From assembly GCF_030013595.1 (NCBI RefSeq), contig NZ_CP122768.1: a DNA stretch of 64,000 nt; one strand, written 5' to 3'. Position numbers and translations under genes: made by a program. Shown here piece after piece: positions 3,829 to 56,015 of this stretch (positions are counted from its first letter, which is position 1; the number at the start of each line of letters is the position of its first letter). A model generated the notes under the pieces. That model was given only the letters and a program-made list of their open reading frames with translations. It did not search any database and was not told the DNA's origin. Source of the stretch: Escherichia coli. Lineage in GTDB: Bacteria; Pseudomonadota; Gammaproteobacteria; Enterobacterales; Enterobacteriaceae.

Positions 3829-5604
3829 TTAACGCTTGTACAACGGGCCGTAGTTCTGGCAAGCGCGATAATCCTGGCCTTCAATATCCATGCCGTGCGC
3901 GGCCCAGGCAGAAGGACGATACACTTTGGTCTCTTCAACGTTGTGCATACATACCGGGATACGCAGCATGGAGGCAAGAGTGATAAAGTCTGCGCCAACG
4001 TGGCCGATGGTTAGAACCCCGTGGTTAGCGCCCCAGTTCGCCATTACCGAGTACACATCCGTAAACGGCCCTTTACCGGTGAGGCGCGGTGCAAACCAGG
4101 TGGTTGGCCAGGTTGAGTTGGTGCGTTTGTTGAGGATGTCATGCACATCCTTCGGCAATTCCACGCTCCAGCCTTCCGCGATTTGCAGTACCGGTCCCAG
4201 GCCTTTGATGATGTTGACACGAGTCATGGTGAACGGGACGCCGCCTTCGGTAAGGAAGCGGGAAGAGTAACCGCCGCCACGGAAGTATTCGTGGATCGCC
4301 GGGCACCATTCGGTAGCGGCGAGGCAAGCGTCAGCCTCCTGCTGAGAGATTTCCCAGTGTGGCTTCATCGTCGGGTTACCTTCGCTGTCGCGTTGTTTAC
4401 AGGAACCGTCCAGCGCAGCAGAACCGGAGTTGATCAAATGGATGATGCCGTGTTCTGCCAGTCCATCGAGTTTATGCCCCGTTACACGTTCAATTGCTTC
4501 TGGTGACCAGTAGGTACGCACATCGGCAAATACCTGAGCGGTGCCGGTGAGCTGGTGACCCATTAGCATTGCCACGCCGTTAAGACTGTCGTTTTCGGTC
4601 GCCACGACAAAGGGTTCGCGCACGCCATTCCAGTCAAATGAACTGTTGAGGATCGCTTCGGCGGTGTCGCCATTGGGATATTGATCGGTCCAGTGACGTT
4701 GTCCCTGGAAGCCCGCAGCGATGGCGTTGTAGCCAAGTGATTCTTCCACGCGACCAATATCGGCCAGTTTGCTGTTGCCTTGCATCATGTCGCGGATACA
4801 CATCGCCATCAGTAAACTTTCGCGCAGAACTGCGCGGCTTTGCTCGGCATTGCGTTGATACTGTTTGTTATTTTCATCTTCGCCATAGCGGAAGTTTTTA
4901 TCAGCCCAGGCCAGCGCCATTTCCAGTTCGGCTTCGTCGTAAATCTTCTGATCGATACGGCGACGCAGTTCGGTCATATCCACCGCCTGGACTTTCATTC
5001 CCAGCCAGGATTCAAAGAAGTTGTGATCAACAATGGAACCGGCGATACCCATCGAAACGCCGCCCAGCGATAGATAGCTTTTACCTTTCATGCTGGCGAC
5101 TGCTAAACCGGCGCGGGCAAAGCGCAGCAGTTTTTCTTCAACATCGGCAGGAATCGATGTGTCATCGGCATCCTGAACATCATGACCGTAAATGGAGAAT
5201 GCCGGGATGCCTTTCTGGCTGTGAGCTGCCAGAGCCGCTGCCAGGTAAACAGCGCCGGGACGTTCAGTGCCGTTAAAGCCCCAAATGGCTTTCGGGCGGG
5301 TTGGATCCATGTCGATGGTTTCACTGCCATAGCACCAGCAAGGCGTTACCGTAATGGTGAGGCCTACATTCTGACTGCTGAATTTTTCTTCGCAAGCAGC
5401 GGCTTCAGCCATACCCGCGATACAGGTATCGGAAATGACACACTCGACGGCAGCTCCGCAGGCATGGCGCAGTTTCTCGGTCAGCAGTGCAGCCGTGGCT
5501 TTCGCCATATTCATTGTTTGTTCTTCAAGCGACTCACGAACACCCATGCGACGACCGTCAATAACCGGGCGGATACCAATTTTCGGTAAGCTGATTTTTT
5601 TCAT
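3829..5604 (-). CDS. fucI: L-fucose isomerase
   Basis: 591-aa ORF recognised as FucI. Confidence 0.95.
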
Positions 5605-52350: not shown

Positions 52351-53085
52351 ATGTCCAAACTCGATCTAAACGCCCTGAACGAACTGCCGAAGGTAGATCG
52401 CATTCTGGCGCTGGCAGAAACTAACGCCGAACTGGAAAAACTGGATGCTGAAGGCCGCGTTGCCTGGGCGCTGGATAATCTGCCCGGTGAATATGTACTT
52501 TCTTCCAGTTTCGGCATTCAGGCGGCGGTGAGCCTGCATCTGGTGAATCAGATTCACCCGGATATCCCGGTGATCCTGACCGATACGGGTTATCTGTTCC
52601 CGGAAACCTACCGCTTTATTGACGAGTTAACGGACAAACTCAAGCTCAACCTGAAAGTGTACCGCGCTACCGAAAGCGCCGCCTGGCAGGAAGCGCGCTA
52701 CGGCAAACTGTGGGAGCAGGGCGTTGAAGGCATTGAAAAGTACAATGACATCAACAAAGTCGAACCGATGAACCGGGCGCTGAAAGAACTGAATGCGCAA
52801 ACCTGGTTTGCTGGCCTGCGCCGTGAACAATCCGGCAGCCGCGCCAATTTACCGGTGCTGGCAATTCAGCGTGGCGTATTTAAAGTGCTGCCGATTATCG
52901 ACTGGGATAACCGAACTATTTATCAGTACCTGCAAAAACATGGCCTGAAATATCACCCATTATGGGATGAAGGATATTTATCGGTCGGTGATACCCATAC
53001 AACCCGTAAATGGGAACCCGGCATGGCGGAAGAAGAAACGCGTTTCTTTGGCTTAAAAAGAGAATGTGGGTTACACGAAGGGTAA
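52351..53085 (+). CDS. cysH: Phosphoadenosine phosphosulfate (PAPS) reductase
   Basis: ORF 52198..53085; true start [14 protein letters not shown] at ATG 52351 gives 244 aa. Confidence 0.95.
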
Positions 53086-53102: not shown

Positions 53103-53140
53103 AAACGCCTCTGTCAGAAATGATGGGGGCGTTTTTATTT
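53103..53140 (+). terminator. Candidate terminator of cysJIH
   Basis: aaacgcc...ggcgttt stem followed by ttttatttt. Confidence 0.4.
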
Positions 53141-53349
53141 TGCGAGCAGCATTCCTGATTTTAAACGTGAACGCCGCTGGAAGAATTATCAGGTATAGAA
53201 TGGCGTTGGGTGCTTGAGGCTGTCTGGCGTTAAGCATTCGCGAGGTTCCAGATGGACAAAAGCCCCAGGCGATATTTCTATCAACCTGAGGCCAGCGTTC
53301 GAACCCAAACAATTCGAATGTTAGTCTCTTCTTTGCAGGGAGGCAAGGC

Positions 53350-53502
53350 ATGCTGACAAAATATGCCCTTGTGGCAATCATAGTGCTGTGTTTTACAGTA
53401 CTGGGATTCACGCTGATGGTAGGCGACTCGTTGTGTGAGTTGAGTATCAGAGAACGTGGTATGGAGTTTAAGGCAGTTCTCGCTTACGAATCGAAGAAGT
53501 AG
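53350..53502 (+). CDS. Hok/Gef-family type I toxin (50 aa), cysH-proximal hok locus
   Basis: [50 protein letters not shown]: single TM helix plus conserved SLCE...R....E..A...YESKK Hok signature; below the 60-aa cutoff of the ORF track; 34-codon upstream ORF (53252-53356) ends ATGcTGA over its start (mok-like). Confidence 0.6.
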
Positions 53503-53523
53503 CCACCACGCGGGGGTAAAACC

Positions 53524-54861
53524 CATAAGCGCTAACTTAAGGGTTGAACCATCTGAAGAATGCGACGCCTCGGTGCCTCGTTAAGACGATGCCTCGCGTT
53601 CTTCAATTGCGTTTTGTAGGCTGTCAGGGATACTGTCCCACGAATGGCCACCTGTAAGCTCCAGATGACCATTTTTGTTATTCTCCACAACGAGTTAGTT
53701 CTTCTTTTCGGATCCGGCACTTCTGGGGGGAAATCCAGCGATGGCTGGATTATGTCGTCAATTAAAAATGCGGCGAGTAGATTAGCAAATATCCACGCTT
53801 TCGCGAGTTCAGGTTCCTTTGCACGCAAAGCATCCAGGTGCAGCAAACTTTTGAGCCGCTTAAAAGCCAGTTCAATTTGCCATCGCAGACGGTAACAATC
53901 AGCCACTTGCTCTGCTGAATATTCATCTTCCGGTAATGATGTTAGCAATAGCACATGGCCCGCTGCTTCCAGCGTTTCCGCCTGAACTACTCGTCCTTTT
54001 CGACGATTCTCGCTGAGCAGTCGGGTTTTACTGATTAATGCTTTTTCGGGAGGAAGTGATACGGCAATGAGACGTGCCGGAAAGGGAGCTCCGGCTTTTT
54101 TATTACCTGAATTGCCTATCATTACAGTGGTTTCACCGTTCTTACCGCAATCCAGCCCGCGCAGAAAACCCATCATGTCAAAGCGCATTCCTTCTGCAGT
54201 TAACCAGCGCAATCCTCGCCAGTGAACCCGGACGATATAATCAGCTTCTCCAAAAGCAAGTGAGCGGATACATTCGGGACGCGAACCGAATCCCCGGTCA
54301 GCAATGCGTATCTCGTCTGCCGTTTGCGCAAATCGGTCCAGCCGTTCAGCGTCTCTGCTGTCGGTTAGCTCAAAATCAGTGAACTGACAGGTATGAGGAT
54401 CATATCCCATATGTAGTCGCCATTCAGCGCTGCCGCCCCCGGGCGCACTGATTGCTGTTCCATCGACAAGACGCAATCTCTTTCCGCTTGTACAACCCGT
54501 AACTGCGGCGCGTACAGCAAGTGTTTGTGCGGCAAGTATGCCAAACCAGTCGGCGGCATTCCGCAGCCGCTTCAGGAGAGCCACGTCAGATAATGTTGCA
54601 ACGTCATGGAGCTGAGCCCATGCAGTGACTTCACGTAATGACATCCCCCCGGGGCCGTAAGCCAGCCCCAGACGTAGCAGAGTTGCAGCATCACGAATTT
54701 CGCGGCGGCGGGTTAGAGCCCCGGCATTACGTGCCGAAGTATCCAGTTCTTCGGGCTTACCAATATGGGCCAGAATTGCTGACCAGTTATCGTGAGAGTA
54801 ATTCATCGGCACGTTAAATCATATCAGGCGTAATACCACAACCCTTAAGTTAGCGCTTATG
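53524..54861 (-). mobile_element. IS186 (IS4 family) insertion sequence, about 1.34 kb
   Basis: Terminal inverted repeats CATAAGCGCTAACTTAAGGGTTG at 53524-53546 and 54839-54861; flanked by direct repeats GGGTAAAACC; single transposase ORF. Confidence 0.85.
53532..54644 (-). CDS. insL: IS186 transposase (DDE, IS4 family)
   Basis: ORF 53532..54812 (426 aa); start at MSLREVTAWAQLHD would give the 370-aa form I recall for K-12 InsL; the longer in-frame extension may or may not be translated. Confidence 0.8.
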   Translation of the reverse strand: MSLREVTAWAQLHDVATLSDVALLKRLRNAADWFGILAAQTLAVRAAVTGCTSGKRLRLVDGTAISAPGGGSAEWRLHMGYDPHTCQFTDFELTDSRDAERLDRFAQTADEIRIADRGFGSRPECIRSLAFGEADYIVRVHWRGLRWLTAEGMRFDMMGFLRGLDCGKNGETTVMIGNSGNKKAGAPFPARLIAVSLPPEKALISKTRLLSENRRKGRVVQAETLEAAGHVLLLTSLPEDEYSAEQVADCYRLRWQIELAFKRLKSLLHLDALRAKEPELAKAWIFANLLAAFLIDDIIQPSLDFPPEVPDPKRRTNSLWRITKMVIWSLQVAIRGTVSLTAYKTQLKNARHRLNEAPRRRILQMVQPLS

Positions 54862-54977
54862 GGGTAAAACCCCGCGTATTGAATTGTTAAAGTTTGGCCT
54901 CCTGCACCCCTTTTTTATACTCTGTTTCTGGTGGCATTGATTTCCTGCAGGCAAGGGAGTAATCATTTTCAAACCCA

Positions 54978-56015
54978 TCAAGACGCCTTCGCCAGCTCCT
55001 TCACCAGCGGTAGCATTATCCGCATAACATCACGGCAGCGACGTTCTATTCTTCCTGGAAGTGCCTTATCAATATGTTGTTGATTATCCAGTCTTACGTC
55101 ATGCCAGCTATTTCCCGCAGGGAATGCGGCTGTTTTTGCGCGTTGCTGATAACCATCTTTATTCCCAAGATTCCAGTTTGTTGCTTCTACCGAAAGTACG
55201 GCAATACCGGCTTTGTCGAAAACTTCGGCGTCATTACAACAGCCAGTACCCTTCGGATAATTTTTATTCAAACCCGGATTGGTCGTTGCGGCAATTCCAT
55301 GACTACGCGCAATTGCCAGCGCCCTGTCGCGCGTTAATTTCCTTACTGCTTCAGGGGTTTTTACACCGCTGTTGAAATACAATTTATCGCCAACAATTAA
55401 GTTATCGAGATTAATCACCAGCAGCGTATTTTTCTTTTCGGTGTCACTCATCCGCTTGAGTAAATTCTCAGCGCCTAATTTTCCTTCCTCTTCGCCGCTG
55501 GTCGCCACAAATCGAATACCATACTCGGTAGGCGTATTTTTCAGGCGTTCTGCCAGTTCCAGCATGACACCTAAACCTGCGGCGTTATCATCTATTCCTT
55601 GTAACGTCAGTCCGCCGAGATTGGCATCGGCGTCAGCATCGCTCAGCGGAGCGTAAGTATCCAGATGCGCCATAATGATGATCTGCTGCGGCGCTTTGCC
55701 TTCATGAGCGGCAATCACCGTACTTCCCGTCACGTTATGCCAGCTCTTGCGATTATCGCGGGCGGTATAAATATACCGACTATTAAATGTCCGAATATCA
55801 CTGCGATAACCCATTTGCTGAAACTGCTGGCGAATATAATCGGCAGATAACATTTCTGCAGGAGTTCCGGTCATGCGTCCCGGAAAGAAAGTAGCAATAT
55901 GTCGTGCCTGAGTATTAGCAAAATCGCCAGGTTTAGATGACGAGGCGTGTACGGGGAGAATAAAGCATACGCCGAGCGCCAGGGCAGCGGTACGGTGGCG
56001 CAATGCGGAAAACAT
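54978..56015 (-). CDS. iap: Alkaline phosphatase isozyme conversion aminopeptidase
   Basis: 345-aa ORF with signal peptide recognised as Iap. Confidence 0.9.
   Translation of the reverse strand: MFSALRHRTAALALGVCFILPVHASSSKPGDFANTQARHIATFFPGRMTGTPAEMLSADYIRQQFQQMGYRSDIRTFNSRYIYTARDNRKSWHNVTGSTVIAAHEGKAPQQIIIMAHLDTYAPLSDADADANLGGLTLQGIDDNAAGLGVMLELAERLKNTPTEYGIRFVATSGEEEGKLGAENLLKRMSDTEKKNTLLVINLDNLIVGDKLYFNSGVKTPEAVRKLTRDRALAIARSHGIAATTNPGLNKNYPKGTGCCNDAEVFDKAGIAVLSVEATNWNLGNKDGYQQRAKTAAFPAGNSWHDVRLDNQQHIDKALPGRIERRCRDVMRIMLPLVKELAKAS

Follow-up and report, generated by a model that had tools for sequence, protein, structure and literature searches.

The 64,000-nucleotide stretch of the Escherichia coli contig NZ_CP122768.1 (RefSeq assembly GCF_030013595.1) that was analysed here, and that we call the window, carries a copy of the insertion sequence (IS) IS186 directly 3' of the toxin gene hokX in the cysH-iap region. 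We conclude with high confidence that this copy arrived by simple transposition into a canonical GGGG-N6-CCCC stem-loop 3' of hokX, and the 3' hairpins of hok genes would be the main resting place of the element in E. coli. IS186 is an IS4-family insertion sequence with a DDE transposase. In the window it occupies 53524..54861 on the minus strand, which amounts to 1338 bp when the ambiguous terminal C and G are counted (the unambiguous core is 53525-54860), and it starts 22 nt past the hokX stop codon. The element was recognized by its inverted repeats and by its identity to IS186/IS421 copies of many E. coli genomes, which is 100% over 1339 nt. Perfect 23-bp inverted repeats, CATAAGCGCTAACTTAAGGGTTG, are found at both termini and belong to a larger 39-nt inverted repeat (53508-53546 and 54839-54877). 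Outside them, an identical 12-nt direct repeat, GGGGTAAAACCC, is present at 53513-53524 and 54861-54872. Since IS186 begins with C and ends with G, the assignment of the terminal bases is ambiguous, and the true target duplication is therefore 10-12 bp and not a fixed length.

The target site is symmetric (GGGG/CCCC) and the duplication has its centre in the spacer, so that each side of IS186 keeps one part of a split hairpin. The left half (53508..53524, plus strand) consists of the 5' arm ACGCGGGG, the loop and CCC, and holds the first copy of the duplication; the right half (54861..54877, plus strand) consists of the second copy and the 3' arm CCCCGCGT. The original prediction had placed the inserted element at 53503-54872. 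This interval does contain IS186, but it reaches 21-22 nt into host DNA on its left side and stops 4-5 nt short of the end of the right arm, so that 54873-54877 is left out.

When IS186 and one copy of the repeat are deleted, the sequence reads ...TAG CCACCA CGCGGGGGTAAAACCCCGCG TATTG..., and the target GGGG-GTAAAA-CCCC is restored. What had been described as a perfect palindrome immediately after the hok stop is palindromic in its 8-bp arms, but not in its 6-nt loop GTAAAA; it does lie 3' of the stop, although it starts 6 nt past the stop codon. A comparison with strains that lack the insertion had also been proposed, and strain HCP5S3_I2 (locus L001) provides it: over 853 nt, the reconstructed site matches at 100% identity a real empty allele, where iap directly follows hokX, and this allele has exactly the pre-insertion sequence that had been predicted. 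With the perfect ends, the 12-nt repeat and this empty allele, the central claim of an IS186 inserted in a GC palindrome 3' of hok stands. The identity between the window and HCP5S3_I2 extends for 2,500 nt to the left and for 2,500 nt to the right of the insertion, whereas the other occupied alleles that were fetched differ from the window at 58-65 of 2,500 nt on the left. Because the flanks equal those of the empty strain and diverge from those of the occupied alleles, they point to a recent insertion on a haplotype whose nearest sampled relative is empty.

The known preference of IS186 for GC-rich palindromes is also borne out at this site, which is a canonical target: the element uses 5'-GGGG(N6/N7)CCCC-3', of which K-12 has just 19 (N6) and 35 (N7) sites, and it inserts in both orientations and hits some sites recurrently (PMC5009759; the motif is also covered in PMC6925257). 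Within the 64-kb window no intact GGGG-N6-CCCC site is left, against an expectation of 0.65, and coincidence is no concern. The sole other canonical target in the window is of the N7 type, GGGGAAGAGTTCCCC at 36622-36636, and it is unoccupied. Both the target motif and the lon-promoter hot spot were reportedly described by SaiSree et al. in 2001.

The target hairpin in the hokX messenger RNA

At the RNA level the hokX palindrome forms a stable stem-loop in the 3' untranslated region of hok, which appears in both the minimum free energy (MFE) fold and the centroid fold of the empty allele. In the MFE fold, the 5' sequence GGGUGCUUGAGGC pairs with the 3' sequence GCCUCCUGCACCC and closes the whole mRNA (z = -3.3); this pairing is predicted to represent the tac-fbi architecture known from hok mRNAs. 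The tac element on the 5' side, GGGTGCTTGAGGC, is located at 53208-53220 (plus strand) within the hokX/sokX 5' regulatory region, and it pairs with the 3' fbi in this fold. In the window, the displaced 3' end of the hok mRNA lies at 54896..54916 (plus strand) and comprises the fbi, GGCCTCCTGCACCCC, with a GCACCC motif, followed by a T6 run. The fbi and the transcript end are now 1.35 kb away from the hok open reading frame (ORF).

The hairpin is not peculiar to hokX. In each of the six hok paralogues of E. coli a GC hairpin lies 7-10 nt past the stop codon, and a conserved GCACCC comes about 30 nt further on. The hairpins are GGCGGG-N8-CCCGCC in hokA, CGCGGGG-N5-CCCCGCG in hokB, GGCGGGG-N6-CCCCGCC in hokC, an imperfect stem in hokD, UGCGGGG-N6-CCCCGCA in hokE and ACGCGGGG-N6-CCCCGCGU in hokX, and the outer pair of the stem is G:C, C:G or U:A among the paralogues. 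Its presence in all six, its fixed distance from the stop and the covariation of the outer pair argue for a selected RNA structure, and we infer that the hairpin is probably maintained by selection on the hok mRNA.

The hairpin was also considered as the transcription terminator of hok, and this role was rejected. The sequence downstream of it, UAUUGAAUUG / TATTGAATTG, has no U-run directly 3', and the terminator scan of L001 called the cysH terminator only and no intrinsic terminator at the hokX hairpin. A T6 run occurs 34 nt downstream of the hairpin, past the fbi, and the hokX transcript is predicted to run about 40 nt beyond the hairpin to reach the fbi and this T6 run.

With the hairpin split and the fbi moved by 1.35 kb, a full-length hok mRNA would be unable to close by pairing of the 5' tac with the 3' fbi. 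According to the Gerdes-lab model, and in view of what is stated about gef/hokC in PMC3562002, the stable inert mRNA pool and the 3' processing would then be lost, and the killer system would be disabled while the toxin ORF stays intact. For annotation, hokX in the window may best be described as IS-disrupted, with an intact toxin ORF that is cut off from its 3' regulatory element.

Recurrence of IS186 at hok hairpins

Junctions of IS186 with the hok hairpins were counted in 5,426 complete E. coli genomes, using queries that were half flank and half IS and a query coverage of at least 80%. Queries of 551 nt cross-matched hokE and hokX (1,723 genomes for both), and locus-specific 700-nt queries were used instead. 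At hokX, 592 junctions are oriented as in the window and 172 in the opposite way; at hokC, 817 are oriented as in K-12 and 667 oppositely; at hokE, 1,551-1,723 are oriented as in K-12 and 262 oppositely. The hokE count in the K-12 orientation stays a range because the 551-nt query cross-matches hokX, the two being similar paralogues with the same IS orientation. Both orientations are thus found at each of the three genes. The hok junctions total 4,061-4,233 against 7,826 chromosomal IS186 matches in 2,220 IS186-bearing genomes, or 52-54%, whereas the three hok hairpins account for about 5% of the canonical sites and about 14% of the N6 sites by the count in PMC5009759. The genome-wide survey that had been suggested as a check of proximity to hok loci accordingly gave strong enrichment. 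These counts show enrichment and recurrence, not rate.

The statement that IS186 also lies just 3' of hokC and hokE in K-12 agrees with the K-12 annotation: IS186A adjoins hokC and IS186B adjoins hokE, both directly 3', and the homologous hairpins are split. The reconstructed targets are GGCGGGG-AGTGAT-CCCCGCC at hokC and (U)GCGGGG-AGTAAT-CCCCGC(A) at hokE, each with a 12-nt repeat. Relative to the hok gene, the copy at K-12 hokC has the same orientation as the window copy and the copy at K-12 hokE the opposite one. IS186C, the third K-12 copy, splits the terminator hairpin of nupC, CCGGGG-ATAATT-CCCCGG followed by T7 (L012 1728-1777 and 3115-3160). Each of the three K-12 copies of IS186 is thus found in a GC hairpin at a gene's 3' end.

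The transposase, we propose, recognizes GGGG and CCCC as symmetric half-sites, and its cuts around the spacer are staggered; symmetric recognition of this kind would explain the use of both orientations. Since the hairpin appears to be under selection on the hok mRNA, the host could not easily lose the IS186 site. Insertions in hok hairpins would persist because no essential gene is harmed, while the other hot sites (fimA, menC and the lon promoter) would be costly in nature. With the target preference, the retained hairpin and the harmlessness of the insertion combined, IS186 would have its main resting place in E. coli at the 3' hairpins of hok genes.

A different account, possible but in our view distinctly less probable, attributes the clustering to selection and not to target preference: insertions that uncouple hok from its 3' or 5' regulatory elements would be favoured, and IS186 would be just one of several elements involved. 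Other IS types do occur around hok loci. IS150 lies 5' of hokA in K-12 (L009), and in E. coli MB30 (L013 649-3432) hokB is flanked by IS150 upstream and by ISKpn26 (IS5-like) on the 3' side, the latter inserted between the hokB hairpin and fbi, in a CTAG that lies 8 nt 3' of the hairpin. Durrant et al. (bioRxiv 10.1101/527788) report hok/sok homologues near hotspots of mobile genetic elements in E. coli and K. pneumoniae and suggest adaptive disruption. In addition, about 53% of IS186 copies are at hok, more than the hok hairpins' part of the canonical sites, which is 3 in about 57 overall and 3 in about 22 among N6 sites. On the other hand, IS186 lies exactly at the canonical motif in every examined case and, among what was examined, is seen only at the three paralogues with GGGG-N6-CCCC. 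It also targets almost only such motifs in selection-free lines (PMC5009759), and the excess is equally well explained by purifying selection that purges insertions at fimA, menC and the lon promoter. As a control, 5,067 of 5,415 genomes have an uninterrupted hokB, whose hairpin has an N5 spacer, and in the single interrupted genome inspected, that of MB30 with its IS150 and ISKpn26, no IS186 was present at hokB. Positive selection for disarming the toxin is nevertheless suggested as a contributor alongside target preference, both by the other IS types around hok loci and by Durrant et al.

It is rather unlikely that the clustering is mostly a matter of inheritance, with a few ancient insertions spread clonally or by homologous recombination and the window carrying an inherited or imported one. 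The genome set is indeed redundant, with many K-12, B and C derivatives, and the junction sequences and duplications are identical between strains. However, inheritance of a few insertions does not account well for the use of both orientations at each of the three loci. At hokX, the orientation opposite to that of the window was verified in strains Ec1120 (L007) and ECCNB12-2 (L008), which have the same duplicated sequence, and the window's own orientation is found on at least four haplotypes of the hokX flank, 45-91 of 2,500 nt apart. E. coli C (L003) and Ec1120 differ at only 4 of 2,500 nt, yet their IS186 copies are oppositely oriented. In the type strain of Escherichia albertii, NBRC 107761 (L014 13348-14684), IS186 occupies the hokX hairpin beside cas3 with the same GGGGTAAAACCC duplication and in the window orientation; the element is 1% divergent and its flanks are about 8-11% divergent. 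For the window itself, the flanks equal those of the empty strain, and the nearest differences from the sampled occupied alleles are 7-177 nt from the junctions, which makes import of the IS by recombination from any of these alleles unlikely. Taken together, the two orientations, the divergent haplotypes, the nearly identical haplotypes with opposite orientations, the empty relative and the E. albertii copy indicate independent events. The idea that hok 3' hairpins are recurrent traps for IS186 is thus supported by the use of both orientations at three loci and by the E. albertii copy.

In a scan for the IS186 end in a collection with one genome per species, the E. albertii copy was the sole complete IS186 found. 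Apart from two matches with a different interior sequence, the remaining ones were fragments, on tiny contigs that belong to unrelated taxa. Ends of IS186 were seen on very short contigs of Marinobacter, Kocuria, Bradyrhizobium and a Collinsella metagenome-assembled genome (L015, L017, L019, L020 and L021), most likely because of E. coli contamination of the assemblies; the Kocuria contig has the K-12 flank from the side of IS186A that faces away from hokC.

Least probable of all is the idea that the hairpin is simply the hok terminator and that IS186 targets terminators generally, with nothing specific to hok: the position of IS186C in the nupC terminator and of all targets in GC hairpins at gene 3' ends would fit it, but the hokX hairpin is followed by UAUUGAAUUG without a U-run and was negative in the terminator scan, its transcript is predicted to extend to the fbi and T6, and, as IS186 requires the DNA motif only, such a view refines our explanation instead of competing with it.

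Several points weigh against transposition into a preferred and harmless hairpin as the full explanation. The presence of IS150 5' of hokA and hokB and of ISKpn26 3' of hokB means that target specificity alone is insufficient to account for all of the clustering of insertions around hok genes. The IS-disrupted gef/hokC of K-12 is still transcribed and still regulated by antisense RNA (PMC3562002). The empty allele could in principle stem from precise excision instead of being the ancestral state. Finally, the junction counts ignore phylogeny, so clonal inheritance and the over-sampling of K-12 and B laboratory strains inflate them, and independent events are sure for a handful only.

Beyond the insertion in the window, we tentatively suggest that IS186 in Escherichia may have its principal reservoir, or "safe haven", in the hok 3' hairpins, considering that these hold about half of its chromosomal copies, have been hit more than once, in either orientation and in different species, and have a stem that the host would be unable to remove because selection on the RNA keeps it. 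If this is true, there would be a link between the persistence of IS186 and a toxin-antitoxin family, and the loss of hok function in many lineages would have come about largely through IS186 activity, either as a by-product or because it was selected. In the literature examined this quantitative view was not found stated, although its components are published. An RNA structure retained for one role would thereby serve as a fixed landing pad for a sequence-specific transposon. There are also practical consequences: counts of "IS186 activity" in natural genomes are dominated by three sites, and the presence of IS186 at hokC, hokE and hokX could act as a marker for strain typing. Copies at hok sites are further proposed to seed rearrangements, such as the cas deletions of the B and C lineages of E. 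coli, through recombination between two copies.

Other features of the locus

The gene order in the window is that of the E. coli cysJIH – hokX/sokX – IS186 – iap arrangement. The left neighbour is cysH, encoding 3'-phosphoadenylyl sulfate (PAPS) reductase, at 52351..53085 on the plus strand, as given by the ORF list and by the RefSeq annotation of the identical sequence in HCP5S3_I2 (L001). It is followed by its intrinsic terminator at 53103..53134 (plus strand), for which the coordinates were transferred to the window from the terminator scan of L001 (3004-3035). The hokX/sokX 5' regulatory region at 53208..53365 (plus strand) corresponds to the Rfam family RF01794 (sok), which matches the identical locus at L001 3109-3266 with a score of 112 bits against a gathering score of 59. 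The toxin ORF of hokX, 50 aa in length and intact, is located at 53350..53502 (plus strand) and matches the Pfam family HOK_GEF (PF01848) with 43 bits, the cutoff being 22. Its protein is identical in L001, L002 and L003 and is annotated as Hok/Gef family (WP_000956460.1). The right neighbour, iap, is found at 54978..56015 on the minus strand from the ORF list and annotation. Neither a CRISPR array nor cas genes are present between hokX and iap in the window. Judged by its position between cysH and iap, the hok locus of the window is the hokX of the literature (PMC7232551). A 34-codon ORF at 53252-53356 (plus strand) starts 5' of hok and stops 7 nt inside it in a different frame, and may be a mok-like leader through which translation is coupled. 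The annotation of K-12 differs in that mokC extends hokC at the N-terminus in the same frame.

Inside IS186, the transposase ORF occupies 53532..54806 on the minus strand and encodes 424 aa with a Pfam DDE_Tnp_1 domain (93 bits, residues 107-348). Compared with IS186A and IS186B of K-12, the window copy has 0 mismatches and one 1-nt homopolymer gap: a run at 53726-53731 is G6 in the window and G7 in IS186A, IS186B and IS186C, the last having the same length as the other two. Owing to G6 in place of G7, the C-terminus of the transposase is shifted and extended, giving 424 aa against the 370-aa InsL, with the DDE domain intact. The Prokaryotic Genome Annotation Pipeline (PGAP) labels identical IS186 copies elsewhere as "frameshifted". 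The G6 run could be a genuine variant or a homopolymer sequencing error.

Comparison with known systems

The main elements of an IS186 insertion at the hokX hairpin are already published. K-12 has hokA, hokC and hokE inactivated by IS elements, and E. coli B has hokX inactivated in this way, according to Pedersen and Gerdes 1999 as cited in PMC7232551. When compared with the K-12 insertions at hokC and hokE known from the same source, the window has the same element, located 22-23 nt past the stop in a GGGG-N6-CCCC hairpin, with the same type of 12-nt duplication and the same displacement of the fbi. The difference is in the paralogue, which in the window is hokX, between cysH and iap and with the spacer GTAAAA, K-12 being without hokX.

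For the cysH-iap region, Almendros et al. 2014 described IS186 beside hok/sok at the CRISPR-I locus and regarded GC-rich sites as IS hot spots that drive the deletion of cas genes (PMC3903273). The cysH-iap IS186 of strain JE86-ST05 corresponds to the window in locus, site, orientation and duplication. E. coli C has the same left junction as the window, and B/BL21 has the same layout of IS186, CRISPR and iap. In E. coli C (L003 5612-5670) the hokX-side junction is that of the window, while at its far end IS186 borders on GGGGTTTTTCCCC, after which comes a CRISPR repeat, and in E. coli C, as in B-type genomes judging by their layout, there is no second copy of the duplication at the far end of IS186. 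A far end without the second copy is a signature of recombination between two IS186 copies that deletes the cas-E genes, as Almendros et al. 2014 proposed. The window differs from loci of this type in having neither cas genes nor CRISPR: it is a simple insertion with both copies of the duplication, followed by the hok 3' remnant and iap. This cas-less layout of hokX, IS186 and iap was found in only 1 of 5,426 complete genomes (strain 7CC), on a different haplotype. The layout and the G6 copy of the IS are what is particular to the window.

A similar generalisation was made by Durrant et al. (bioRxiv 10.1101/527788), who found several hok homologues adjoining insertion hotspots; in the available part of that paper, there is no tie to the IS186 motif in the hok hairpin and no share of IS186 copies is given. 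The hot spots at the lon promoter, fimA and menC (PMC5009759) have the same target motif as the hok sites and are used in both orientations, but insertions there alter or destroy gene function and come mainly from laboratory lines, whereas insertions in hok hairpins are widespread in natural isolates. Against this background, the share alone, with about half of the chromosomal IS186 copies in three hok hairpins, may be new.

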